Assembly (NCBI GenBank): GCA_963813065.1
Contig: CAWEXP010000009.1
Location: 1,931 to 65,930 of the forward strand
Direction of reading: 5' to 3'
DNA: 64,000 bases
Source of the DNA: Candidatus Kaiserbacteria bacterium
GTDB lineage: Bacteria > Patescibacteriota > Minisyncoccia > Phycocordibacterales > Phycocordibacteraceae
Part shown: positions 1 to 42,487 of the stretch, piece after piece
Numbering within the stretch: the stretch's first letter is position 1
Layout of the letters: each line of letters begins with the position of its first letter
Notes under the pieces: generated by a model
The model's input: the letters and a program-made list of their open reading frames with translations, nothing else
Told to the model about the DNA's origin: nothing
The model's database searches: none
Made by a program: the position numbers and the translations under genes

Positions 1-210
1 GCCGGTCTTGGTGCGGCCGCGGCCGGGATCGAGCACGGGTAACGTGGTCTCGTCGGCGAACAGTTTTGGCCGCTCCTTGAGCTTGTCGAGCAGGCGTTGG
101 GTTTCCTCCCGGCGTGGACCGTCTGGTTTTGAGGACCTGATGCTCGGATAGATCGGGCATGAATGGCGCAATGATCGTGTCCATGTCAAATACAAGCGGA
201 CACTATCTGG

Positions 211-435
211 ATGTCGGGCGGCAAGGAGGATGATGGAGCGGCGCCCGGGCGCAGGCGTCGATCCTGGACCCTGGACGCGAAGCGTCGGATCGTTGACGAG
301 AGTTTGGTGGAAGGCGCATCGATCGCTGAGGTGGCTCGTCGGCACGAGCTCAACGCCAACCTGCTGTTCGCATGGCGGCGGAAAATGGGCTTTGTGGAGC
401 CGATCCGGAATAGCCGGCGCCGATCTTGCCAGTGA
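211..435 (+). CDS. tnpA: IS66 family accessory protein TnpA (orfA)
   Basis: 74 aa ...SWTLDAKRRIVDESLVEGASIAEVARRHELNANLLFAWRRK..., a typical IS66 OrfA HTH. Confidence 0.6.
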   Translation: MSGGKEDDGAAPGRRRRSWTLDAKRRIVDESLVEGASIAEVARRHELNANLLFAWRRKMGFVEPIRNSRRRSCQ

Positions 436-583
436 CCCTCATCGCCTATGGAGGCGTCAGAAGAATCCGGATCCAGGTCGGGCGGCCAGATTGAGATCGT
501 GCTCGCGAGGGTGATCGGATCATGGTGTGGTCGGACGTTGAGACAGCGGCGTTGTCGCGAGTTTTGAAGGCGCTGTCACGGCG

Positions 584-932
584 ATGATCCCAATTCCGAG
601 CGGCGTTAGGGTATGGATTGCGACTGGTCATACCGACATGCGGCGCGGCATGCAGGGTCTGGCGCTTCAGGTTCAGGAGAGTTCTAAACCGCGATCCCCA
701 TGCCGGCGATCTTTATATCTTCCGAGGTCGTCGCGGCGATCTCGCCAAGATCCTCTGGCACGACGGGATCGGGCTGTCGCTATACGCCAAACGACTGGAC
801 CGCGGAAAGTTCATCTGGCCGTCGGCATCAGGCGCCGCGGTGTCGATCTCGGCGGCGCAGATGGCGTACATGCTCGAAGGGATCGATTGGCGAAATCCGC
901 AACTGACGTGGCGGCCCAAGAGCGCGGGTTGA
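584..932 (+). pseudogene. tnpB: IS66 family TnpB (orfB), frameshifted
   Basis: The N-terminal part MIPIPSGVRVWIATGHTDMRRGMQGLALQVQE reads in the 584 frame. The remainder (...LYIFRGRRGDLAKILWHDGIGLSLYAKRLDRGKF...) reads in the 618 frame. A 1-nt frame change lies near 680-700. Confidence 0.55.
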
Positions 933-1002
933 TGAGCGCGGGCCGAACCGCAAAAATATTGGAGACAGTGCGCATTTTAGGACGCGCCAAATCGCGCGAT
1001 TT

Positions 1003-2473
1003 GTGATTCACTTCGACGCATGGATGCCGCTCGCGCCGTTCTTGCCGCAAGAAAACGCCGCCCTGAAAGCGGCGTTGACCGTTGCGCAGAACAAGGGCCT
1101 AAAGTCGGCGGAGCTGGCGGTCGCGCGCGCGAAGGCGTCAGAAGACATGGCGCTGATCGCGCAGCAGGAGCTTCGGATTGCGAAACTGGAGCGCCAGGTC
1201 TATGGGCAGCGCTCGGAACGCTCGGCGCGCCTGATCGATCAACTGGCGCTCAGCTTCGAAGATCTGGAAGCCAGCGCCACGGAAGACGAGCTGGCGGCAG
1301 AAAAGGCCGTCGCCAGCACGACCACGGTGGCCGGATTTACGCGCAAGCGTCCCGAGCGCAATACATTCCCCGACCATCTTCCCCGCGAGCGCGTGGTGAT
1401 CGATCCGCCGACGGCGTGTGCGTGCTGTGGCGGCAATCGTCTGCGCAAACTTGGCGAGGACGTGACGTGCACGCTGGAATCCATCCCCCGTCAGTGGAAG
1501 GTGGTCGAGACGGTTCGGGAGAAGTTCACCTGTCGGGATTGCGAGAAGATCTCGCAAGCACCGGCACCGTTCCATGTCATCGCGCGGGGCTGGGCGGGGG
1601 CAAGCCTGCTGGCGATGATTGTGTTCGAGAAATTTGGTCAGCACCAGCCTTTGAACCGTCAGGCCGAGCGTTATGCGCTGGAAGGCGTGCCAATCGCGCT
1701 GTCGACCATGGCCGACGCGGTGGGCTCGGTCTGTACGGCGCTCGATCCGCTCCTTCGCCTTGTGGAAACTCATGTGATGGCGGCCGAGCGCCTACATGGT
1801 GACGATACGACCGTGCCGGTTTTGGCTGAGGGCAAGACCGATACTGGGCGATGCTGGATCTATGTTCGAGACGACCAGCCCTTTGGCGGCGTCGGGCCGC
1901 CTGCGGCGATGTTCTACTACTCACGCGATCGCCGGGGCGAGCATCCGCAGGCGCATCTGGCCGGATATGCCGGCATCCTGCAGGCGGACGCCTATGACGG
2001 CTACAACAAGCTCTATCTGGCGGACCGCCGGCCCGGCCCGATCCGGGAGGCGGCGTGTTGGGTGCATGCGCGGCGACCATTCTTCGCCATGGCGGATCTT
2101 GAGGAGAACGCTCGCCGCAAAGCCGCAGGCAAGAAGGAAATCCCTCTATCGCCGATCGCGATCGAGGTCGTGCGCCGCATCGACGCGCTGTTCGAGATCG
2201 AGCGGTCCATCAACGGCAAGAGCGCCGAGGAGCGTATAGCGGTCCGACAAAACTTGAGCCGGCCGCTGGTTGATGATCTTCGGGTCTATATGCGTGAGCA
2301 GGCCGCCGGGCTCTCGCGCGGGCATGACCTGGTCAAGGCCATCAATTACATGCTCAAGCGTTGGCCGGCCTTCACCTTGTTCCTTGAAGATGGCCGCGTT
2401 TGTCTCTCAAACAACGCCGCCGAGCGAGGTCTGCGCGGCATCGCACTTGGGAAGAAAATCATGGCTGTTCTAA
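1003..2473 (+). pseudogene. tnpC: IS66 family transposase TnpC, 3' end disrupted
   Basis: Coiled-coil N-terminus, a CxxC...C zinc motif and a DDE core are typical of IS66 transposase. The conserved tail GRKSWLF-stop is found only in the +1 frame at 2452-2473. The in-frame continuation to 2760 is not transposase-like. Confidence 0.6.
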
Positions 2474-2740
2474 GTCTTCGTCAACGGGATTGTAGTCGTC
2501 TGGTCGAAGGAGTTTTACGACACCTTCACCGACAGCGATGCCCTTGGCGGGCCGATACACCTCGGTGCCTTCGCCGACAAGCTGCACGTACACCACTCGG
2601 ATCTTTTGCTGCGAAGTCTGTCATCGCGCGCTCCAACGGCAGGTCAAAGCATATCCCAGTCGCACTTCAGATTCACGATCACGCCGTCTCTCCATCGCAC
2701 GAATGCGACGCTGTCTTGCCAGCCACGTCATGCGGCGGGC

Positions 2741-2800
2741 AGGCCCGATCCCAAACCTAACCCCGATCCCAAACCCAAACCTAACCCACTCCTACCCGCG
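2741..2800 (+). repeat. short tandem repeat (CCCGATCCCAAACC(C/T)AA units; encodes PNPDPKPKPNP)
   Basis: Direct visual repeat at ccgatcccaaacctaaccccgatcccaaacccaaacctaaccc. Confidence 0.4.
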
Positions 2801-3445
2801 ATTGCCAATCACCGCCCACAGCCAAATCCACGGCAACAGCACGACGACGCGCCACTCGCGCGTGATCGCGTACATCGCACGGAAATCAGAAACACATAGC
2901 TTAGAAGAACAAGATGCGCGCTCTTGTCGACCATGATCTTCGCGCCGCCCCAGACCGCGAAGCCGACCGAGGCGAGTCCGAGAGACAATTGCAAGATTCG
3001 CCACGGGCGCGCGAGATACAGAGAGAGCATCGCCGTCGGCAAGAGCACCAACAAGAAGCCAATCACTCCGAGCACCAAGCGCTCCAACCCGATGAAGCCG
3101 GTGGCGCTTTGTTTGCAAGACCGGGAGTCGACGAATGGGCGGCTTCTTTTTTTGGCTCACAGGTTATTCGTTACGGGCAGGCGTATCGGCGGGGGATTCG
3201 AACGTGGGGGCAATGTTGAAACCGTTTGGGGATCGAGCGCTCCAAGCAGCGAGTGCGCGAGAGCCGATGTCACGCGAACAGGTACAATTTGGCCGAGATC
3301 AACGCGCGATAATCGCGCTCCAAAGGGGACATCAATATGCACGATCTCGTTTCGCTCGCTGCGGCCCATCACGCGGCTTGGGGTTCGCGATAGACGCACG
3401 CCGCCTGGGCGTGATTCGCCTTCGATCAACACATGCGCGCTACTG

Positions 3446-3724
3446 TCAACGAGCGACTGCAGATGCGCCCTCTGTTGTTTGTCGGAATGCTTCAAAAGGC
3501 TGTGCGAGCCGCGATTCTTTGATTTGTTCGGGCACGTTATCGGGCAGGTTCTGGGCGGGGGTTTGCGGGCGAACCGAGTACTTGAACCCAAAGAGCGCGC
3601 TGAATCCCGCTTCGGCGACCAACGAGAGTGTCTGCGCGAAGTCGTCGTCGGTCTCTCCCGAAAAGCCGACGATCACGTCGGTCGAAATCGTGATGTCAGG
3701 GCACGCCGTCTTGAGCGCGCGCAC
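3446..3724 (-). pseudogene. internal fragment of MiaB/RimO-like radical-SAM methylthiotransferase
   Basis: The 92-aa stretch ...TDVIVGFSGETDDDFAQTLSLVAEAGFSALFGFKYSVRPQTPA... matches the C-terminal half of MiaB-family enzymes. There is no N-terminal radical-SAM region. Confidence 0.5.
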
Positions 3725-3754
3725 TCCGTTTAAAATTGTTCGCGCGTGTAGCGA

Positions 3755-4150
3755 CGGATCATGCGACGTAAAATGGCGTTCGAACCCGATTGCACCGGCA
3801 GCTCAGAAATCGCCTTCAAGATCGCGGCATCAATGGCTTTCCAGGCGGCGGCCGAGCGCGCGAAGCCCGTTATCCTCGAGCCGATTATGAAGGTCGAGGT
3901 CGTCGCGCCGGACCAGTTCATGGGCGACATCACCGGCAACATCTCGGGCAAGCGCGGCGCCATCGAGAGCATCGAAGAGCGGGGCATGAACAAGGCGATT
4001 CACGCCAAGGTGCCACTCTCTGAAATGTTCGGCTACACCACCACGCTCCGTTCGATGACCGAGGGCCGCGGCTCGATGACGATGGAATTCGACCACTACG
4101 AGACTGTGCCAAACAATGTGGCGGCGGACATCATTGCTTCGCGCAAATAA
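3755..4150 (+). pseudogene. fusA: 3'-terminal fragment of elongation factor G (fusA), last ~130 aa only
   Basis: ...SSEIAFKIAASMAFQAAAERAKPVILEPIMKVEVVAPDQFMGDITGNISGKRG...VPLSEMFGYTTTLRSMTEGRGS... is the EF-G domain IV/V C-terminus. A stop lies immediately upstream at 3749. The miaB fragment abuts on the opposite strand. Confidence 0.65.
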
Positions 4151-10171: not shown

Positions 10172-10729
10172 ATGAGTGACCATAAAGAGCCTGTAAACCC
10201 AAACTTGGTGCAGGTAGAATTCATTCTTGTTGACATACCTGCCAAGACAGGAATCGAGTCCGATATCCAAACGCTTGCACTCGAGCTGGCCGGCAGGTTG
10301 CCGAAGCTCGTGGTGCGGTTCTTCGATGAGCGGGGACTGGTGACGAAGCTGGTGCAAGACTATGAAGCTACGCAGTCAGCCTACGGAGTGACCATAATCG
10401 AACTGGGGAAGATGAGTTTTGGTGGTCGATTTGCAGTCTCTGAGCAACGCGATGTCGCTCGTCTTTCGCGGAAAATGGACGCACTACGAGGCCAAGCGCG
10501 CTCACTCACAGTCGGCATGTTGAGTAGTGTCACGAAAGGGTCTCGCAGAATCGCCATCGAAGATTCGCCCGATCGACCTTTGCGCATGGCAGTCGAGGCC
10601 GAGTTCGACCACCTGGTCACCACGGCCAAGAAGGCAAAAGATGTGTTCATTTTCGTCTTCAAACCGAACGATCTTCTTTCCGAGAAGAACGAAGCTGTTG
10701 TCAGTATGGTATTTAAGCTCCAGCTGTAG
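10172..10729 (+). CDS. hypothetical protein (island gene, lower GC)
   Basis: An AGGAGG Shine-Dalgarno lies 6 nt upstream. 185 aa. The gene ends in TAG followed by the hairpin CCCCGCTCTGGCGGGGATTTTATTT. Confidence 0.5.
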   Translation: MSDHKEPVNPNLVQVEFILVDIPAKTGIESDIQTLALELAGRLPKLVVRFFDERGLVTKLVQDYEATQSAYGVTIIELGKMSFGGRFAVSEQRDVARLSRKMDALRGQARSLTVGMLSSVTKGSRRIAIEDSPDRPLRMAVEAEFDHLVTTAKKAKDVFIFVFKPNDLLSEKNEAVVSMVFKLQL

Positions 10730-10815
10730 CCCTCTCCCCGCTCTGGCGGGGATTTTATTTGCCTGTAACATGTCCTTGTGGTATAAGATGGCCAGAGCAA
10801 CCGAAGGAGAAACCA

Positions 10816-11199
10816 GTGATTATTCTTGAAAAGATGTCTCGCAAAATCTCGTTCTCTGCGGGCAATCATTTCCGTCGCGCCAATTTTATCGAAGAAATTG
10901 GCGATAGCTCAATGGTGGTGTGCGTTTGGTCGCAGTGTTCATTATGGGATACAGGCGTCTTCCGTGTCAGGCATGTGCCTGTCGTCGACACGGGCGTTGA
11001 AGTGTTCCAGCGTGGTCAGCCGATTCTCGACATCACCCAACAAATCAAGGGATATGCTCCCGCGAGCCTCATCACACCTCTTGAGCACCTCACTACCAAT
11101 GTTTCCTTGTGGAAACTGAAAGTGAGTCTTGAATCATCGGTCCTCGATGCGGTTGGCAAGGTATCGTTCCCAGACTTTCTTAACATCGAGTTCGAATAA
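10816..11199 (+). CDS. hypothetical protein (island gene)
   Basis: A GTG start with a perfect AAGGAG Shine-Dalgarno 7 nt upstream. The ORF track's upstream TTG at 10759 is the less likely start. Terminator CCCCGCGCAATGCGGGGATTTTTATT follows. Confidence 0.4.
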   Translation: MIILEKMSRKISFSAGNHFRRANFIEEIGDSSMVVCVWSQCSLWDTGVFRVRHVPVVDTGVEVFQRGQPILDITQQIKGYAPASLITPLEHLTTNVSLWKLKVSLESSVLDAVGKVSFPDFLNIEFE

Positions 11200-11228
11200 C
11201 GTGCCTGCCCCGCGCAATGCGGGGATTT

Positions 11229-11996
11229 TTATTGTTGATACTGCGGTTGAAGAATGGTGCGAATCTGCGAGACCGGGATGCGGAGCGTCTGCGGGCCCGA
11301 GGAGTACGGCGCGACCTGGTAGGGAGCGAAGAGGATAATGAAATCCTTGTTGTCGAAGAAGAAATTCTGGAAATTAGCGGCTTCGGGCGTCGTGCCGGGG
11401 TTGATGAAGGTCGGGTCAGCGCTATCGCCGATGATGGCGGGGAGCATCTGCCGCGCGAGGGTCGAGAGTGTGCCCAGATAATCGGAACCGCTCAAGAAAA
11501 TATCGCTCAAGGCGAGTGCTTGTCCGGTCGAGGTGTCGAAGGTGAGGGTCGAGAAGCTCGTGTTGGGGTGCGCGCCGAGCGTATCTTCGTAGGTGGTGAA
11601 GATGTAGGAAACCGTGCGGGGCGAAGAAGCGATGAGGTAGGTAATCTGGAGCGATTCTTTGCTTCCTTTATCGAATCCCATCATCGAAATGTCGCGCAGT
11701 GAGAGATGGTCGAAGTTGCCCTGCGTCTTGAAGTCGCTAATAATCCCGCTGACGAGCGATTGGATCTTCGCAATGGCGGCGCGGTCGGCCGCGGCACCCG
11801 CAGTTTCAGCGAGCGGGGTCGAGGTCGGATAGTTGGCGGCAATGTCGTAGTACGGCGCGTGCTCGGTGTCGCCGCCCTCTGGAAGCGTGAGAACGACGGG
11901 CGCCGAGACTGGCGTCGGCTTCACTGCCGCGTAGAACACAATCCCCACCACAATCACGACCAGCACCGCGCCACCGATAATCAGTTCTTTTTTCAT
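11229..11996 (-). CDS. membrane-anchored DUF3298/DUF4163-like (RsiV/PdaC-type) protein
   Basis: An N-terminal TM helix, then ...YYDIAANYP...ITYLIASSPRTVSYIFTTYEDTLGAHPNTSFSTLTFD... Confidence 0.5.
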   Translation of the reverse strand: MKKELIIGGAVLVVIVVGIVFYAAVKPTPVSAPVVLTLPEGGDTEHAPYYDIAANYPTSTPLAETAGAAADRAAIAKIQSLVSGIISDFKTQGNFDHLSLRDISMMGFDKGSKESLQITYLIASSPRTVSYIFTTYEDTLGAHPNTSFSTLTFDTSTGQALALSDIFLSGSDYLGTLSTLARQMLPAIIGDSADPTFINPGTTPEAANFQNFFFDNKDFIILFAPYQVAPYSSGPQTLRIPVSQIRTILQPQYQQ

Positions 11997-12048
11997 GTGA
12001 ACAGTCTAGCAAATCGGGCGAATATGGGCGCGTGATAGAATAACGAGC

Positions 12049-12426
12049 ATGAAGAAGGTCACAAAATCGATCGCGATTAAGGAGCCCACCCTTACGGAGG
12101 TTCTCGCTGTTATGAATGAGCGTTTCGACGTGGCTGAATCTCGTATGGAAAATAGATTTGGTGACATTGAAATCCGCATCGACAAACGTTTCAATTCTTT
12201 GAATGAGCGCTCGAACGGAATCGACGCGCGACTTGGTGTTATTGAAAGGCGGGCTGGTAAAATTGAGAACACTCTCGGCGATATACAAGATGATTTGACT
12301 TCCGCACTTGCCGCCACCGATAACGATGGTTCTGCGATTTTGAATCACGAACACCGCATCGCGCACCTAGAGAAATTGAGCAATATTAAAATCGTTCCAC
12401 CCCGGCATCTCGTCGGTCTTGAATAG
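12049..12426 (+). CDS. hypothetical coiled-coil protein (paralog of 6977..7291)
   Basis: MKKV...KEPTLTEVLAVMNERFD...RFGDIEIRIDKRFNSL...HEHRIAHLEK. A bidirectional terminator with a GATTAC loop follows. Confidence 0.5.
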   Translation: MKKVTKSIAIKEPTLTEVLAVMNERFDVAESRMENRFGDIEIRIDKRFNSLNERSNGIDARLGVIERRAGKIENTLGDIQDDLTSALAATDNDGSAILNHEHRIAHLEKLSNIKIVPPRHLVGLE

Positions 12427-12458
12427 AAAAACCCCGCCGATTACGGCGGGGTATCGTC

Positions 12459-12776
12459 TTACTCTTCGTTTGGGTTATAACTGAGTAAACGACCTCTTCT
12501 GGTTTGCGTGTTGTAAGTGCCTTTCAGGTATAAGTATTCACGATTTTTATACCGCTCAAGGGACGGTGCATTGACCAGATGGCCGTTACATACGATTTCC
12601 CACGGCTCGCCCTCACCAGAGCCTCGCTTAACTATGTCGATGGTTAGACTGTAGACATATTCTCCATCTCCGCCGTGGAAATGGAATTTCTGGGGAACGC
12701 CCTGAGCGAGTCCTGGAATTAACAACCCCCATTGCGAAGGACCGTTCACAACGAGATAATTCACTCCATGGGCCAT
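12459..12776 (-). CDS. hypothetical protein
   Basis: 105-aa ORF convergent with the 12049 ORF. Confidence 0.35.
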   Translation of the reverse strand: MAHGVNYLVVNGPSQWGLLIPGLAQGVPQKFHFHGGDGEYVYSLTIDIVKRGSGEGEPWEIVCNGHLVNAPSLERYKNREYLYLKGTYNTQTRRGRLLSYNPNEE

Positions 12777-12860
12777 CCGACCCTCCTTTGATACATGATC
12801 TCCTCATCGGTGCGGAAATCGAACACCCTGACTCCTCGCGGAGCGACCTACCCATACAGA

Positions 12861-13923
12861 CGCGCATTCTCATATGAATCCGAACACTCGCGGTATTGTG
12901 CGTGCATGAAAAAAGAAACGTTGGAAGCAGCTGAGCACGAGCGAGCGGTCTGAGATTTCAATACTGAAGCGCAAGAAGTATTCGCTCCGTGCGATTGCTC
13001 GAGCTCTTGGCCGCAGTGTTTCCAGCATCTCGGAAGAGTTGAAGAGGAATCGAGTGCGAGGTTTGTATGATGTACAGAAGGCTGCACACAAGGCGTATGC
13101 ACGAAGAAAGTACGCGAAGTATCAAGGCATGAAGATCGTCGGGCATGCGGGTCTGCGTTCACTCGTGGAAGAGCTGTTGTATGACGACCAATCGCCCGAG
13201 AACATCGCCGGAAGAGTCCGGAAGTATGCCAAGCGTCTGCCGACCATCTCGAAAGACGGCGTGTACCGATTCATCAAAAGCGTGTATGGCCGGAGAATTG
13301 AGTCGCATCGGAACGCGCGAAAGCAGAAACGAAGAAAGTATCACCCGAGAGTCGCGGCTCTTTCAGAGCGAACCTTCATCGACAAACGGCCCAGGCATAT
13401 CAACGCTCGTTCGAGGAGCGGAGATGTCGAGGCTGACTTCATTGTCTCGGGCAAGACTGGCAGAGGCATCCTGCTCGTGGTGGTCGACCGGAAGCTCCGC
13501 GTCACGTTCATCGAACGCATTCTCGATGTGTCAGTGGCGAACGTGCACCGGGCATTCCTCCGCATTCAACAGAGATTCCCCGAGCTCCGCACCATCACCA
13601 CTGACAACGATATTTTGTTCCAGATCATCAGGCACTCGCCACTCTTCTGGGGGTGCGCATCTATTTCTGTCGGCCGTATCACTCCTGGGAGAAAGGAACG
13701 GTTGAGAATACAAACGGCGTCATACGCAAAGACATACCGAAAGGCGCAAACATTTCTCGCTATTCAAAGGCATTTATACAAAAGCTCGAGGACAAGCTGA
13801 ACCGGAGGATACTGAAATGCCTCCAATACAAAACTCCGGCGGAAGCATTAGCTGCGGTACGGAAACGAAAAAAGCGCCGAGGCGCATGAAATTCGAGTGT
13901 TCGGATTGAGCCCGTCGAGCGGG
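12861..13923 (+). mobile_element. IS30-family insertion sequence, copy 1 (1063 bp; 3-bp TSD AGA)
   Basis: Ends CGCGCATTCTCATATGAATCCGAACACTCG ... CGAGTGTTCGGATTGAGCCCGTCGAGCGGG share the inverted core AATCCGAACACTCG. The flanks are acAGA|IS|AGAta. The copy is identical to 40332-41395 except for a 1-bp deletion. Confidence 0.85.
12906..13889 (+). pseudogene. IS30 family transposase, copy 1 (extra 1-bp deletion at ~13618 splits the DDE domain)
   Basis: The HTH region ...KKKRWKQLSTSERSEISILKRKKYSLRAIARALGRSVSSISEELKRN... lies in the +1 frame relative to the ATG at 12906. The DDE region ...TTDNDILF follows. This copy reads ttccagatc where copy 2 reads ttccgagatc. Confidence 0.8.
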
Positions 13924-14016
13924 AGATAGGAATTGATTTCAATATACACCCTTATGCAAATCTGTCAAAGTTTTAAAATGGGCTAGGGATTCTCGGGCAA
14001 TTTGGATTTGCCCGAG

Positions 14017-14045
14017 TTGACGGCTGGGAGAGACTCGTGTATCTT
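14017..14045 (+). promoter_or_regulatory. candidate promoter (TTGACG-17-TATCTT) re-initiating transcription of rpsS and downstream genes after the IS30/island insertion
   Basis: -35/-10-like hexamers with 17-nt spacing, 36 nt upstream of rpsS. Confidence 0.35.
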
Positions 14046-14049
14046 GCCT

Positions 14050-14078
14050 CTATCCCGTTCGGCGGGATATTTATTTCA
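14050..14078 (+). promoter_or_regulatory. terminator-like hairpin in the rpsS leader (possible attenuator)
   Basis: CCCGTTCGGCGGGATATTTATTT lies between the candidate promoter and the rpsS ATG. It is the same motif family as the hairpins at 10733 and 11204. Confidence 0.35.
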
Positions 14079-14080
14079 CT

Positions 14081-14485
14081 ATGGCACGATCACTCAAGAA
14101 GGGACCCTACGTGGACGTCAAACTCCTCAAAAAGGTCCAAAAAGCTCAGTCCCGCACCGCGGGGGTGATTAAGACGTGGGCGCGCGGAAGCCGAATCAGC
14201 CCGGAAATGGTTGGTTTCACCTTCGGCGTCCACAACGGCAAGAGCCACATTGAGGTCCTCGTCTCTGAGGAGATGGTGGGGCATCGGCTCGGTGAATTCT
14301 CGCCGACCAAGAAGTTCATCCGCCACGGTGGCAAGATGCAGAAGGAGCTCGAACAGAAGCGCCAGGAGTCGGAGGTCGCCGCCGCCAAGGCCGCCTCTGC
14401 CGCTCCGCCGCTAAGAAATAATTTGTATGAAAGCGACTCTCGAAAGCCACAATCAGTCCCCGCGCAAGGTCCGCCTCGTGGCTGA
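14081..14485 (+). CDS. rpsS: 30S ribosomal protein S19; 3' boundary uncertain (reads 59 nt into rplV)
   Basis: [19 protein letters not shown]...[45 protein letters not shown]... The ORF runs ~40 aa past the usual S19 end to a TGA at 14483. Confidence 0.7.
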
Positions 14486-14744
14486 CCTCGTGAAAGGGAA
14501 GAAGGTCCCGGCGGCGCTCTCGGCGCTCGCGTTCCTCCCCAAGCGCGCGAGCGAGCCAGTCGCCAAGCTCATCAAGAGCGCGGCCGCTAATGCCAAGGAC
14601 AAGGGCGAGAACCCGAAGAGCTCACGATAGGTCAATCACCCGTCGAGAGCGCGGAAATGTCGAAGCGTTTCATGCCGCCACGCCTTCGGCCGCGCCTCGG
14701 CGATTCGCCACAAGAAGAGCCGCATTAAGGTCGTCCTCGCGTAA
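14427..14744 (+). pseudogene. rplV: 50S ribosomal protein L22 with an in-frame TAG at 14628-14630
   Basis: [27 protein letters not shown]...[55 protein letters not shown]. Homology to L22 continues in the same frame across the stop. Confidence 0.7.
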
Positions 14745-14749
14745 CTTCT

Positions 14750-15439
14750 ATGACTCACACCGTACATCCCTATGCGCACCGCCTCGGCATCATCCGCGAC
14801 TGGAAGAGCCGTTGGTTCGCCGCCGACAAGAAGAGCTACCGCGAGAATATCAAGGTAGACGCCGCACTCCGCGCCTTCCTCGAGAAGAAGCTCCACGGTA
14901 CCTACACCTCGGGTATCGACATCGAGCGCTCGGCGACCGAGCTCCGCGTGATCCTGGCCACCGCCCGCCCCGGCTCGTGATTGGTCGCTCGGGCGAGAAC
15001 GCCGCCGAGCTCCGCGCCGAGATCACTAAGGTCGCCCGCAAGGTGGCGCCTCTTGATCGCCGCACGGTGAAGTTCGATATCGTCGAAGTGCGCCAGCCGG
15101 AGACAGACGCGGCGGTCGTCGCGGCGATGGTCGCCGAAGGCCTTGAGAAGCGTATGCCCTTCCGCCGCGTGCTCAAGCAGACGGTCGAGAAAGTGAAGGC
15201 CGTCCGCGAGGTCGAGGGCGTGCGCATCACGATCAGTGGCCGCCTCGGCGGCGCCGAGATGTCGCGCAAAGAGGAAATCAAGCGCGGACGCATCCCGCTC
15301 CAGACCTTCCGTGCGGACATCGACTGGCCTATGGCAAAGCTCCAGCTCCGTACGCGTCATCGACATCAAGGTTTGGATTTACCGCGGCAATATCTTCGCC
15401 GAGAAGAAGGCGGCAAGCCCGAGCCTCTCGCGGGCCTAA
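14750..15439 (+). pseudogene. rpsC: 30S ribosomal protein S3 with at least two frameshifts
   Basis: The N-terminus MTHTVHPYAHRLGIIRDWKSRWFA...ILATARPG ends at 14980. The next segment LVIGRSGENAAELRAEITK...GRLGGAEMSRKEEIKRGRIPLQTFRADID reads in another frame; a 1-nt deletion occurs at ggc(c)tcgtg. The C-terminus VIDIKVWIYRGNIF is in a third frame. Confidence 0.75.
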
Positions 15440-15448
15440 TACATTGCT

Positions 15449-15861
15449 ATGCTTTTCCCTAAAAAGTAAAACACCGCAAGTGGCAGACTCAGCGCAAGAG
15501 CGCTAGCGTCTCGCGCGCCCGGACACGCGCGGTACCTCAGTCTCTTCGGCTCCTTCGGACTCAAGGCGCTCACTTCGGCGCGTGTCACGAGCAACCAGAT
15601 TAAGCGGCGCGCAAAGTGCTCACCCGCGCAGTGGCCAAGAGCGGCAAGCTCTGATCGCATCTTCCCGATCGCCCCGTCACGGCGAAGCCGGCGGAGGTGG
15701 GCATGGGTTCGGGCAAGGGCGACCCGAAGCTCTACGTCTGAGGTGCGCCAGGTCGCGTACTCTTTGAGATTGACGGTGTCAGCGAGGCGGTGGCCCGCGC
15801 ACACCTCATCCAGGCAGGGTCGAAAGTGCCCGTGAAGACGAGCATCGTCGTGCGCCGTTAA
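15449..15861 (+). pseudogene. rplP: 50S ribosomal protein L16 with at least 2-3 frameshifts and two in-frame TGA codons
   Basis: MLFPKK then a stop. VKHRK... is in another frame and ...LSLFGSFGLKALTSARVTSNQI in a third. The segment [63 protein letters not shown]...VKTSIVVRR follows. The first TGA aligns with the conserved Trp of uL16. Confidence 0.7.
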
Positions 15862-15893
15862 TTGCAGTATTTCAATATATATGGCAAAGAGAG

Positions 15894-16085
15894 ATGACAT
15901 GCATAAGAAGACAGATCAGGAACATGCGCGCACTCCTCGCGAGCGAGCGGGTGAATCTGCACAAACTCCGCTTCGAGGCGGCGGGTGCGCGCCCCAAGGA
16001 TTCGAGCGCGCCGCGCGTGGCACGGAAGCAGATCGCACGTATACTGACCGAACAGCGTTCGCGCGTCATCAAGGCCACAAAATAA
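15894..16085 (+). CDS. rpmC: 50S ribosomal protein L29
   Basis: ...NLHKLRFEAAGARPKDSSAPRVARKQIARILT... has the uL29 LRFQ...G...VRR.IAR..T pattern. AAGAGAG lies upstream of the ATG. Confidence 0.55.
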   Translation: MTCIRRQIRNMRALLASERVNLHKLRFEAAGARPKDSSAPRVARKQIARILTEQRSRVIKATK

Positions 16086-16087
16086 AT

Positions 16088-16351
16088 ATGGAAAACAAAA
16101 CCCCTCGTCCCCAATCGTTCACTGGCACCGTCGTCAAGACGGCGATGAAGGTACGGCCACCGTGCGCGTCGACCGCTCGTGAAGCATGCGAAGTACAAGA
16201 AGTATTTCGTTCGCTCCAAGAAGTACTCGTGCACGATGCGGGCAACACGGCGGCGGTGGGCGACAAGGTCACTATCGTTGCGACGCGCCCCATTTCGAAG
16301 TTGAAGCGCTTCGCGATTGCTTCAACGACGCTCAGCACCGGCAAAAAATAA
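16088..16351 (+). pseudogene. rpsQ: 30S ribosomal protein S17 with three 1-nt deletions
   Basis: Homologous segments in three frames: MENKTPRPQSFTGTVVKTAMK, GTATVRVDRS, VKHAKYKKYFVRSKKYS, and VHDAGNTAAVGDKVTIVATRPISKLKRF. Every shift goes in the same -1 direction. Confidence 0.65.
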
Positions 16352-19621: not shown

Positions 19622-20230
19622 ATGGAACCTACAAAAGACACACCGGAAATCATCGCGACGCCCGCTGTCGCTGAAGCTATGGCGGGCAAGCCGGCGGCGC
19701 GCCCGACCTTCAATCGTAATGCGCGCGGTTCGATTCGCGGACGATCACCGCACGGCCGCGGCTCCGCGGGCGGCCGTGCTCCCCGCGAGCGCAGTGAGTT
19801 CGACCAGGTGACTATCGACGCCCGCCGCGTGGCGCGCGTGATGGCCGGCGGTCGCCGTTTCAATTTCTCTATTGCGGTCGTTATCGGCGACAAGAAGGGT
19901 CGTGTGGGCGTCGGACTCGGCAAGGCCGCTGACACCGCACTCGCCATCGAGAAGGCAACCCGCGACGCGAAGAAGAATCTCATCACGGTCGCGCGCACCA
20001 AGAATAATTCCATCCCGCATGCGGTTGGCGCCAAGTATGCATCCTCGACCGTTGAGATTCGCCCCAGCCCGGGTCGCGGTCTCGTCGCGGGCTCGGCGAT
20101 GCGCACCGTGCTCGACGCGGCCGGCATCACCGATGTCGTGACCAAGATCAGCACGCGTTCGAAAAATAAGCTCACCATCGCGCGTGCCACCGTCGCCGCG
20201 CTCACGACGCCTCCGCTCCTAATTCCACTT
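19622..20230 (+). CDS. rpsE: 30S ribosomal protein S5; 3' end uncertain
   Basis: ...RVMAGGRRFNFSIAVVIGDKKGRVGVGLGKAADTALAIEKATRDAKKN...KLTIARATVAAL... The reading frame has no stop until 20419, inside rplO, so a terminal indel is likely. No L30 gene lies between rpsE and rplO. Confidence 0.75.
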
Positions 20231-22016: not shown

Positions 22017-22077
22017 TTATTCTGCATATGTTGTACTCTATTCCCCAGAGCAATCTCGCTCATTGAAGGAGTGCGCG

Positions 22078-22899
22078 ATGCGCAGAGGCTATAACGACGT
22101 TGGCATCCTGTCCGACGACCATGGCCAAGTAATTGGCATTTGTTTTGGATGGGATCATACCGCCGAGCATGAGTGGGGTATCCGAGGAATCCTATCTGCC
22201 TTCGGGATTCCTGGAATGCCAGAACGGCGACCAGGAAATACTGTCGGTGATCTCATTGGCGCCGATACTCGTGCCGTAACGAAAGTCCCCGCTGAACTGA
22301 AATTGTTTGGGTTCAAGAAGGCGGCGTATCTTGTCTATAGTTCGGCGTTTGCGTGGCGAGATCCACCACCGGCGACCGAGAAAGAACTCGATCAACTTCT
22401 CGATCTAAGTTCTGTCGATGACGACAAAGAGATCGTAGCTAGTTGGAGCGGCGAAGATTTCGGCATCCGAATCAAGAACGGGTCTTCCAAGAAGGGGCTT
22501 ATCGTTCTTAGGCAAATCAATACGGCACTTCAGATCAAAGACGCTCTCATTTGTCTTGCGGGCCCTGGTGGCCCGTTCCGTAATCGCGGATTGCACATCC
22601 TCATCCATTCGCGGCTTCCTCAAGAAATGTTTACGCTTATGCATGACGCAGATGCAAGTTATCTGGATCTTACAGAAGCGGCCGTAAAAACCGGCATTCG
22701 TGCACGAGTCGACGCGGCGAAGAAAGGATATTTTGCCCTCTCTCCACGCTGGGTCGATGAGGAAGAAAAACCAAAGACGAAACACCCCGTTATTTTTTGG
22801 TTGAATCCCGAACAACAACATAGTAACAATTATGGGTGGTTCACGGTCGAAGAACTCGATCAATGGATTGCTGGTAAAGGACCGATACCGAAGAATTAA
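22078..22899 (+). CDS. hypothetical 273-aa protein inserted between secY and adk; lower GC (~50%)
   Basis: AAGGAG Shine-Dalgarno and its own terminator (22903-22930). No recognisable family. A clear compositional contrast with flanking genes. Confidence 0.5.
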   Translation: MRRGYNDVGILSDDHGQVIGICFGWDHTAEHEWGIRGILSAFGIPGMPERRPGNTVGDLIGADTRAVTKVPAELKLFGFKKAAYLVYSSAFAWRDPPPATEKELDQLLDLSSVDDDKEIVASWSGEDFGIRIKNGSSKKGLIVLRQINTALQIKDALICLAGPGGPFRNRGLHILIHSRLPQEMFTLMHDADASYLDLTEAAVKTGIRARVDAAKKGYFALSPRWVDEEEKPKTKHPVIFWLNPEQQHSNNYGWFTVEELDQWIAGKGPIPKN

Positions 22900-40331: not shown

Positions 40332-41395
40332 CCCGCTCGACGGGCTCAATCCGAACACTCGAATTTCATGCGCCTCGGCGCTTTTTTCGTTTCCGTACCG
40401 CAGCTAATGCTTCCGCCGGAGTTTTGTATTGGAGGCATTTCAGTATCCTCCGGTTCAGCTTGTCCTCGAGCTTTTGTATAAATGCCTTTGAATAGCGAGA
40501 AATGTTTGCGCCTTTCGGTATGTCTTTGCGTATGACGCCGTTTGTATTCTCAACCGTTCCTTTCTCCCAGGAGTGATACGGCCGACAGAAATAGATGCGC
40601 ACCCCCAGAAGAGTGGCGAGTGCCTGATGATCTCGGAACAAAATATCGTTGTCAGTGGTGATGGTGCGGAGCTCGGGGAATCTCTGTTGAATGCGGAGGA
40701 ATGCCCGGTGCACGTTCGCCACTGACACATCGAGAATGCGTTCGATGAACGTGACGCGGAGCTTCCGGTCGACCACCACGAGCAGGATGCCTCTGCCAGT
40801 CTTGCCCGAGACAATGAAGTCAGCCTCGACATCTCCGCTCCTCGAACGAGCGTTGATATGCCTGGGCCGTTTGTCGATGAAGGTTCGCTCTGAAAGAGCC
40901 GCGACTCTCGGGTGATACTTTCTTCGTTTCTGCTTTCGCGCGTTCCGATGCGACTCAATTCTCCGGCCATACACGCTTTTGATGAATCGGTACACGCCGT
41001 CTTTCGAGATGGTCGGCAGACGCTTGGCATACTTCCGGACTCTTCCGGCGATGTTCTCGGGCGATTGGTCGTCATACAACAGCTCTTCCACGAGTGAACG
41101 CAGACCCGCATGCCCGACGATCTTCATGCCTTGATACTTCGCGTACTTTCTTCGTGCATACGCCTTGTGTGCAGCCTTCTGTACATCATACAAACCTCGC
41201 ACTCGATTCCTCTTCAACTCTTCCGAGATGCTGGAAACACTGCGGCCAAGAGCTCGAGCAATCGCACGGAGCGAATACTTCTTGCGCTTCAGTATTGAAA
41301 TCTCAGACCGCTCGCTCGTGCTCAGCTGCTTCCAACGTTTCTTTTTTCATGCACGCACAATACCGCGAGTGTTCGGATTCATATGAGAATGCGCG
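40332..41395 (-). mobile_element. IS30-family insertion sequence, copy 2 (1064 bp; 3-bp TSD GTA), inserted in msrA
   Basis: Identical to copy 1 apart from one base. The flanks ...gagGTA|IS|GTAtcgc reconstruct the msrA codons G-T-E-Y-R-S. Confidence 0.9.
40366..41349 (-). CDS. IS30 family transposase, copy 2 (HTH in +1 frame after an A6 tract; 283-aa DDE ORF intact)
   Basis: The ORF 40366-41217 is intact, including ...TTDNDILFRDHQALATLLGVRIYFCRPYHSWEKGTVENTNGVIRKD... The N-terminal HTH lies upstream in the +1 frame relative to the ATG at 41349. Confidence 0.8.
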
Positions 41396-41679
41396 TACTC
41401 GGTACCCGTGTCGGGGCCCTGGCGATTGACCTGCGTCGCATCATGCGACCCGAAGAAGACCGTGAGCAGATTGGTATAGCTAATCTGGTTGGGGTCGAAC
41501 TCAACTTTGATGACCTCGGCGTGGCCCGTGCGGCCGCTCGCGACCCGTTCGTACGTCGGCGCTTCACTCGTACCGCCCGCGTATCCCGGCTCAACGCTCT
41601 CGATACCTCGCAACATTTTAAAAACAGCTTCTGTGCACCAGAAGCACCCACTCCCGAAAACGGCTGTTTCTGTGTTCAT
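41396..41679 (-). pseudogene. msrA: msrA 5' half (fused to the IS30 terminus)
   Basis: MNTETAVFGSGCFWCTEAVF...GHAEVIKVEFDP...NRQGPDTGTEY, then IS-derived AHSHMNPNTRGIVRA-stop. Confidence 0.8.
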
Positions 41680-41728
41680 GCACGTATCGTAGCAAATAAA
41701 AAACGGGCCCCGTGGGGCCCGTCGAAGG

Positions 41729-42487
41729 TTATGTGTGGTGAGCATCTGGTAGAGATTGCATAAGATCAGCGAAGGAACCGCCATCTTCTTCATCATTCCA
41801 GTCGAGGAGTGCGGCGGCCGTGAGTTGCATGGCCGTGTCGCTCCCGCCGCGCCGGAAGAGCCACTTCACCGCGTCGGACATCTCAATGCCACTGTCATGG
41901 AAAAGGCATCCGATGCCCTGAAAGAAATGACGATCCAGATAGTCGTCCAGGAGTGGACCACCAACAACCGTTTCGATCTTGTCGAACACGCGTCCTTCGG
42001 CATCGTCTCCGAAGCCAGAGGTGAGTGCATGCCGCACTAATTCGTGGCGCATCTCGAGCGAGGATTTTTCTTCGGCAAAGTCGAGTGCGAATTCAAGCGC
42101 GTCACGCCAGTCCCGCATCAATGCTTCATCGAACGCAACGGCATAAATAATCGCGTCGGCATCGAGTTCGGAGAGATACGACGCGAGCTCGAACGCTTTT
42201 GCATCGTCGCCGCCATCGCCGAACACCTCGTAGAATGCCCGTGCGGCTTCCGAGAGTTTGTCCGGGTTGAAGTCATCGCGCGACCAGTCGCCGACTTCCA
42301 TGACCAGCTCTGTGATGCGCTCCTCGAGCATGGCGAAGTGCGCCTGCATTTCGTCGAAATACGCGGTGTCGCTTTTCGAGAGAGGGCCGGCGATTCGTTC
42401 GAGTCGCTGGCGCTGTACCTCAGTCAGGTGATACCGCTGTTTTGCTTCGGCGAGCACGACGGCGTCGAACATGTTTCTATCGAACAT
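41729..42487 (-). CDS. hypothetical acidic protein
   Basis: 252-aa ORF. A terminator lies at 41700-41725 on this strand. Confidence 0.4.
   Translation of the reverse strand: MFDRNMFDAVVLAEAKQRYHLTEVQRQRLERIAGPLSKSDTAYFDEMQAHFAMLEERITELVMEVGDWSRDDFNPDKLSEAARAFYEVFGDGGDDAKAFELASYLSELDADAIIYAVAFDEALMRDWRDALEFALDFAEEKSSLEMRHELVRHALTSGFGDDAEGRVFDKIETVVGGPLLDDYLDRHFFQGIGCLFHDSGIEMSDAVKWLFRRGGSDTAMQLTAAALLDWNDEEDGGSFADLMQSLPDAHHT

Follow-up and report, generated by a model that had tools for sequence, protein, structure and literature searches.

This locus raises the question of whether six adjacent ribosomal-protein genes, all with broken reading frames, have been damaged by mutation or misreported by the assembly. 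The genes, rpsS, rplV, rpsC, rplP, rpmC and rpsQ (for S19, L22, S3, L16, L29 and S17), lie in a 64-kb stretch of contig CAWEXP010000009.1 from a Candidatus Kaiserbacteria bacterium (hereafter the window), within what its sequence identifies as the S10/spc ribosomal-protein cluster of a Kaiserbacteria-like genome in the Paceibacterota (Candidate Phyla Radiation, CPR). As given, all six have interrupted frames, and each needs from 1 to ~10 insertion/deletion (indel) corrections. The initial annotation left two explanations side by side: (i) a low-coverage, error-prone patch of the assembly, or (ii) a decaying copy of the block with a functional duplicate elsewhere, possibly created by the IS30-family insertion sequence (IS) that stands just upstream. 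The first is favoured here. The lesions are very probably consensus-sequence errors in a normal, functional rpsS-rpsQ segment of a single S10/spc cluster, and not mutations, because selection, conserved columns, lesion spectrum and repairability all favour errors.

The lesions were mapped by frameshift-aware protein-to-DNA alignment (custom aligner) against the orthologues of three relatives, L161 (CAKYMO010000087.1 of GCA_936414265.1, the closest), L001 and L009, and a second time with position-specific profiles of 85-153 orthologues per gene; lesion sites were repaired locally, base by base. In a first check by three-frame translation and tblastn, every one of the six genes was distributed over two or three frames. 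Aligning the DNA directly to L161 (75% identity) gives too much noise for an exact indel catalogue and produces compensating gap pairs in the flanks as well. The frameshift-aware alignments, the base-by-base repair and the L161 DNA alignment delimit an indel-dense patch at 14405-16230 (plus strand) that holds 21-26 indels of 1-2 nt. The profile run returns 26 events between 14408 and 16227 (one in S19, four in L22, five in S3, nine in L16, four in L29 and three in S17), comprising ~21 1-nt deletions (one of which is a 2-nt loss) and ~5 1-nt insertions, a deletion to insertion ratio of ~4:1. A pair of calls in S3 (15342/15346) and three of the four in L29 are doubtful, which sets the defensible range at 21-26 events in 1.82 kb, or one indel per 70-90 nt (about 1.2-1.4 per 100 nt). 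The events come in bursts (14616-14678, 15325-15354, 15467-15748, 15923-15956 and 16151-16227), with clean stretches of 200-350 nt between them.

When 17 flanking genes (EF-Tu, L3, L4, L23, L2, and L14 through MAP; 12.7 kb) are treated in the same way, one clear frameshift is seen, along with two compensated pairs that are doubtful, in keeping with the earlier description of the flanking ribosomal genes as essentially intact. In the clear case, a 1-nt insertion lies at 20203-20216, 15 nt ahead of the S5 stop, and the S5 open reading frame (ORF) runs 187 nt into L15. From this background (at most three events per 12.7 kb) ~0.4 events are expected in 1.82 kb, while at least 21 are observed (Poisson P <1e-25, by our own arithmetic), and the enrichment of the patch over the flanks is ~60-180-fold. 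The concentration of lesions is therefore real, and larger than the ~30-fold excess first estimated. The background rate of one indel per ~8 kb proposed in the initial annotation agrees with the isolated frameshifts found elsewhere in the window, the contig outside the patch carrying about one indel per 8-13 kb. A frame scan of the whole window based on G+C content at third codon positions is too noisy to count background frameshifts; thus, individual genes were inspected instead.

Gene by gene, the damage consists of short losses and gains of bases. The rpsS gene (14081-14421, plus strand, as are all six) has one 1-nt deletion at about 14405-14408; this hides the native TAA at 14419-14421, and the ORF as given runs on to 14485, so the 59-nt overrun into rplV reported earlier comes down to one missing base. 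Repair yields ...AAKK-TAA at 14419-14421, as in relatives. In rplV (14427-14744), deletions at ~14616 and ~14630 are accompanied by insertions at ~14641 and ~14678, and repair brings back the conserved SITVESA and MPRAFGRAS. The in-frame TAG that had been ascribed to L22 is present (14628-14630), but it lies out of the true frame and is read only after the first deletion. The rpsC gene (14750-15439) has 1-nt deletions at ~14975, ~15325 and ~15354, where at least two frameshifts had been noted; the insertion/deletion pair at 15342/15346 in the profile run is probably an alignment artefact.

The heaviest damage is in rplP (15449-15861), which lacks ~9-10 bases. Single deletions occur at 15467, 15505, 15543 and 15602. 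Around the TGA at 15652 (15652-15668), three deletions in 15 nt turn W-I-R-I-F-P-D into L-stop-S-H-L-P-D, and around the TGA at 15739 (15739-15748) three missing bases turn Y-V-F-E-V-R-P into Y-V-stop-G-A-P. Thus, of the earlier reading of L16 (at least two to three frameshifts plus two in-frame TGA codons), both TGA codons are seen, but as by-products of the missing bases. At least one net frameshift falls at 15923-15926 in rpmC (15881-16085), where up to three additional events, extending to 15956, are doubtful. In rpsQ (16088-16351), the three same-direction 1-nt deletions already recognized are found at 16151, 16177 and 16227. Taken as a whole, the initial list had the lesions in the right places; its count was too low, it left out rpmC, and it missed a lesion at 13622 inside the IS30 copy.

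The apparent TAG and TGA stops are, on the sequence, by-products of closely spaced indels and not stop mutations. Reassignment of UGA or UAG as sense codons was considered as a separate candidate and rejected: the stops vanish on indel repair, and the relatives have W or F codons at these places.

Once repaired, the six proteins are ordinary members of their families. Scored against the bacterial equivalog hidden Markov models of NCBIfam with their curated cutoffs, all six match end to end, at or above cutoff: S19 with 119.3 bits on TIGR01050 (cutoff 89.35), L22 with 90.9 bits on TIGR01044 (cutoff 73.65), S3 with 213.4 bits on TIGR01009 (cutoff 114.5), L16 with 122.8 bits on TIGR01164 (cutoff 76.85), S17 with 92.3 bits on TIGR03635 (cutoff 88.7), and L29 with a borderline 22.6 bits on TIGR00012, exactly at cutoff. 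The repaired S3 is 90% identical to that of L161.

A decaying gene would be expected to show relaxed selection, and the block shows none. In a codon-by-codon comparison with L161, 15.7% of amino acids differ in the block against 17.6% in the flanks, and the differences at the first, second and third codon positions are 0.119, 0.101 and 0.444 in the block and 0.143, 0.095 and 0.433 in the flanks. Because both the amino-acid difference and the codon-position pattern match those of the intact neighbours, the block has been under the same purifying selection as these up to the present. At columns conserved in at least 97% of the 85-153 orthologues, mismatches number 6 of 204 in the block and 4 of 943 in the flanks. 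Of the six in the block, four coincide with frameshift junctions: three belong to the 15652 cluster (W to stop, R to H and F to gap) and one to the L29 junction; the remaining two are an R to H change in L29 at 15960, within the doubtful indel stretch, and one conservative L to V change.

These comparisons bear directly on the view that the rpsS-rpsQ copy in the window is a set of genuine pseudogenes, decaying while a functional duplicate, perhaps made by IS30, serves the cell elsewhere. The lesions are undeniably in the sequence, the block adjoins a recently active IS30 element (two near-identical copies, one of which truly disrupts msrA), and the search for a duplicate spans the 64-kb window and not the whole genome. 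Against this, divergence and third-position bias equal those of the intact flanks, and at most two of the 204 conserved columns carry substitutions that frameshift junctions do not explain. In mutation-accumulation lines of Escherichia coli, base substitutions outnumber indels by ~10:1; at that ratio, at least 21 neutral indels would imply 100-200 substitutions in 1.8 kb, dozens of them at conserved columns.

The lesion spectrum is likewise foreign to pseudogenes, in which substitutions, stop mutations and indels of varied size would be mixed. The block has only 1-2-nt indels, biased towards deletion and almost without accompanying substitutions, as in a consensus-error patch of long-read origin. 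No larger deletion, truncation, or damage to a start codon, stop codon or short spacer is found in the block, and the gene boundaries match those of L161 almost exactly, and also those of L001 and L009. Nor has the block moved. It stands in its canonical position between an intact rplB (L2; 9213-10064, plus strand, 89% identical to the L161 orthologue), which forms the upstream operon flank, and an intact rplN (L14; 16353-16730, plus strand), the first intact gene 3' of the patch. The window runs in the order L3, L4, L23, L2, a 4-kb insert (10172-13923), S19, L22, S3, L16, L29, S17 and L14, followed by L24, L5, S14, S8, L6, L18, S5, L15, SecY, an extra ORF, Adk and MAP; the position and order of the six genes match L161 apart from the content of the rplB-rpsS insert.

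A self-BLAST of the 64-kb window finds no second copy of the rpsS-rpsQ block, and duplicated ribosomal-protein operons are not a known feature of CPR genomes of ~1 Mb. With no relaxed selection, indels of 1-2 nt only, a canonical location and no duplicate in the 64 kb, the decaying-copy alternative of the initial annotation is not supported, and genuine pseudogenes are regarded as very unlikely.

An internal control for the error reading is provided by two IS30-family copies. Copy 1 (12860-13923, plus strand) lies 158 nt upstream of rpsS and is flanked by a 2-bp target duplication (AG); copy 2 (40332-41396, minus strand; 1065 bp) is inserted in msrA with a 2-bp duplication (GT). In the self-BLAST, the two are 99.9% identical over 1065 nt with a single gap. 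The sole difference is a 1-nt deletion at 13622 in copy 1, which splits the transposase ORF, while copy 2 reads through. The assignment to the IS30 family follows from a DDE transposase (176.5 bits for copy 2 on the NF033563 IS30 model; cutoff 80), the 1065-bp length and the 2-bp target duplications. Copy 2 interrupts msrA (41347-41796, with the remainder below 40331), and removing it in silico together with one GT gives an uninterrupted msrA frame. Because target duplications are present and excision restores msrA, the insertions themselves are taken to be genuine, and the element appears to have been active recently in this lineage. A recent pair that differs by one frame-breaking 1-nt deletion, on the side of the patch, is what is expected from a local drop in consensus accuracy.

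A separate feature is shared by the two copies: in each, an A6 run comes after the ATG (ATGAAAAAAG; at 12909-12920 in copy 1 and at the equivalent position near 41340, minus strand, in copy 2), after which the helix-turn-helix part of the transposase continues in the +1 frame, such that M-K-K-K-R-W... would need A5. This run is either a systematic homopolymer error common to both copies or, at the beginning of the transposase, a genuine break of frame or site of recoding.

The position of the patch next to an IS end also invites the view that the sequence is genuine, its source being a defective molecule that was single or rare, for instance an error-prone repair tract (DinB-type -1 frameshifts) beside IS30 in a dead or minority cell, with the assembly following one read. 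The lesions are deletion-biased and clustered, they adjoin the IS end with one inside the IS, and their density is near that of a single molecule or read. That density (~1.3%), however, exceeds known polymerase error rates by orders of magnitude and cannot be told from raw long-read error, and bursts with clean gaps of 200-350 nt are typical of read error. Six essential genes would also have been lost at once, and nothing in the sequence requires it; thus, a defective molecule is considered extremely unlikely. Taken together, the two ways in which the indels could be real, a freshly inactivated copy of six essential ribosomal genes or a hypermutated repair tract beside IS30, are judged very improbable. 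If they were real, a second functional rpsS-rpsQ block, or a novel means of tolerating or repairing such damage, would be implied; for an ultra-small genome, ribosomal operons that are duplicated and decaying would be unexpected, and they find no support here.

Expression of the genes as they stand, by programmed ribosomal frameshifting, transcriptional slippage or RNA editing, would be a further way to keep the lesions and save the proteins. In insect endosymbionts, slippage at long poly(A) tracts rescues frameshifted genes. Here, 21-26 independent sites would be needed in 1.8 kb, without a shared motif and with several of them not in runs, and all 85-153 relatives per gene have uninterrupted frames. 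Nothing specific speaks in favour of recoding, which is given next to no credence.

Under the reading preferred here, that of consensus errors, ~1.8 kb of the contig (possibly ~2.6 kb, starting from 13622 inside IS30) would stand at roughly single-read accuracy, with mostly dropped bases. Most likely, a long-read assembler or polisher left the stretch essentially unpolished, perhaps with too few usable reads there. Candidate causes include: (i) a local drop in coverage, (ii) reads diverted to, or mixed with, the near-identical sequence of a co-occurring strain, and (iii) a junction beside the IS30 repeat for which one or a few reads are the only support. Such behaviour has precedent. Nanopore consensus sequences keep gene-fragmenting indels and need ~40x coverage for near-finished accuracy, and consensus errors survive at low coverage and at sites of unreliable read alignment or ambiguous placement (PMC9262707, PMC8812927, PMC12007338). 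Error recurrence is seen in the contig itself, with lesions in S5, a beta-CASP/MBL gene, a HAD gene and IS66, and with IS30 copies that differ only by the indel at 13622.

Several points weigh against this interpretation. The platform used for sequencing is inferred, as is the reason why the consensus failed locally, and the failure is sharply confined to the block, with L14 onward clean. The true bases are deduced from protein conservation, the best reference being L161 (~75% identity in DNA, 85-90% in protein); nothing near-identical turned up among genome contigs (queried with L5), metagenome contigs (corrected S3) or a set of 5.8 billion proteins, or by exact-protein look-ups (L14, GroEL and L2). 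The L5 protein is 83-86% identical to those of Kaiserbacteria/Paceibacterota metagenome-assembled genomes (MAGs). Not all of the deletions are in homopolymers. Many events fit a length change in a run of 2-4 nt, with at least three exceptions (13622, 15602 and 16151), and agreement with a neighbouring base would arise by chance in ~44% of cases; for most of the other deletions, the short run is one of several equally good repairs. A pure homopolymer-error model is thus upheld in part only. Inspection of the sequence contexts of the lesions reveals no common motif of the kind expected from methylation-type systematic error.

The consequences are practical. Used as given, the contig leads to the annotation of six ribosomal 'pseudogenes', and with it to lower marker-gene completeness, damaged ribosomal-protein phylogenies and false claims of decay. 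The main value of the patch is as a quality flag for the contig, not as a biological feature.

The cluster around the patch has its own history of insertions. The gap between rplB and rpsS (10172-12859 up to IS30; gene tables and tblastn) contains a hypothetical gene (10172-10729), a DUF3298/RsiV-like gene (11229-11996, minus strand; 74.5% identical to the L161 orthologue), and two small ORFs (12049-12426, plus strand, and 12459-12776, minus strand). The hypothetical and DUF3298 genes occupy the same place in L161 and L001; because they are shared, this part of the 'island' is ancestral to the lineage and not IS30 cargo. The split between rplB and rpsS is found in this Kaiserbacteria clade at 10172-12005 of the window, 7547-9168 of L161 and 5720-7020 of L001. 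At the same junction, other relatives have different inserts, including a transposase in L013, while L009 is without an insert. The rplB-rpsS junction seems to be a hot spot for insertions.

The rpsS leader (13960-14080) aligns with that of L161, and IS30 lies just upstream of it. It includes a promoter-like site (TTGACG-17-TATCTT, 14017-14045) and, just before the rpsS start, a terminator-like hairpin with a T-run (14051-14078), the hairpin falling within an insertion of 27 nt with respect to L161; it may represent a leader, an attenuator or an insertion remnant. Two small coiled-coil-like ORFs, one between S10 and L3 (6977-7291) and the other in the rplB-rpsS gap (12049-12426), are paralogous (34% identity, E = 5e-9). 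Further downstream, an ORF of ~285 aa (MRRGYNDVGILSDDHGQV...; ~22040-22899) lies between secY and adk, which are adjacent in L161; it appears to be another lineage-specific insertion in the cluster.

Elsewhere in the contig, isolated frameshifts are found in IS66 tnpB (~670), IS66 tnpC (~2455), the beta-CASP/MBL gene (~25915) and the HAD gene (~46660). The N-terminal 110 codons of the beta-CASP/MBL-fold hydrolase and the last ~20 of the HAD-family gene lie in a different frame from the rest. The single-gene frameshifts in S5, beta-CASP/MBL and HAD look like background consensus errors.

The window begins with a mosaic (1-4150), in which an IS66 element (tnpB at ~584-1006, and tnpC from 1003 to ~2471) has internal frameshifts and breaks off at 2471; its DNA is 88.6% identical to a plasmid copy from Methylovirgula, an alphaproteobacterium. 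It is followed by a miaB-like fragment (3446-3724, minus strand) and then by only the last 116 codons of EF-G (3800-4147); in L161, the EF-G gene is complete and preceded by S7. The first 3.8 kb probably arose either by a chimeric join or by genuine truncation of an essential gene through an IS, and the mosaic start suggests a long-read metagenome contig that is of low quality or chimeric. Taken with the patch, the cut-off EF-G and the alphaproteobacterial IS66 suggest that the contig needs re-polishing and a check for chimeric joins.

Among known systems, close counterparts are the S10/spc clusters of L161, L001 and L009, which share the gene order, the spacing and 85-90% protein identity with the window. 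Their reading frames are uninterrupted throughout, and the window alone has the indel patch; its rplB-rpsS gap additionally holds the two small ORFs and IS30. The pseudogenes of Mycobacterium leprae and Sodalis are similar in that frameshifted genes lie beside recently active insertion sequences. By contrast with that decay, the block in the window is without excess substitutions, large deletions or a relaxed codon pattern, and its genes are six essential, single-copy ribosomal genes between intact neighbours. The errors of long-read (Nanopore or PacBio continuous long read) assemblies and MAGs are similarly deletion-biased indels of 1-2 nt that create false frameshifts and stops in conserved genes, and isolated examples are likewise scattered along the contig of the window. 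Unlike those errors, the patch stands ~100-fold above the contig background within 1.8 kb, and several of its lesions fall outside homopolymers.

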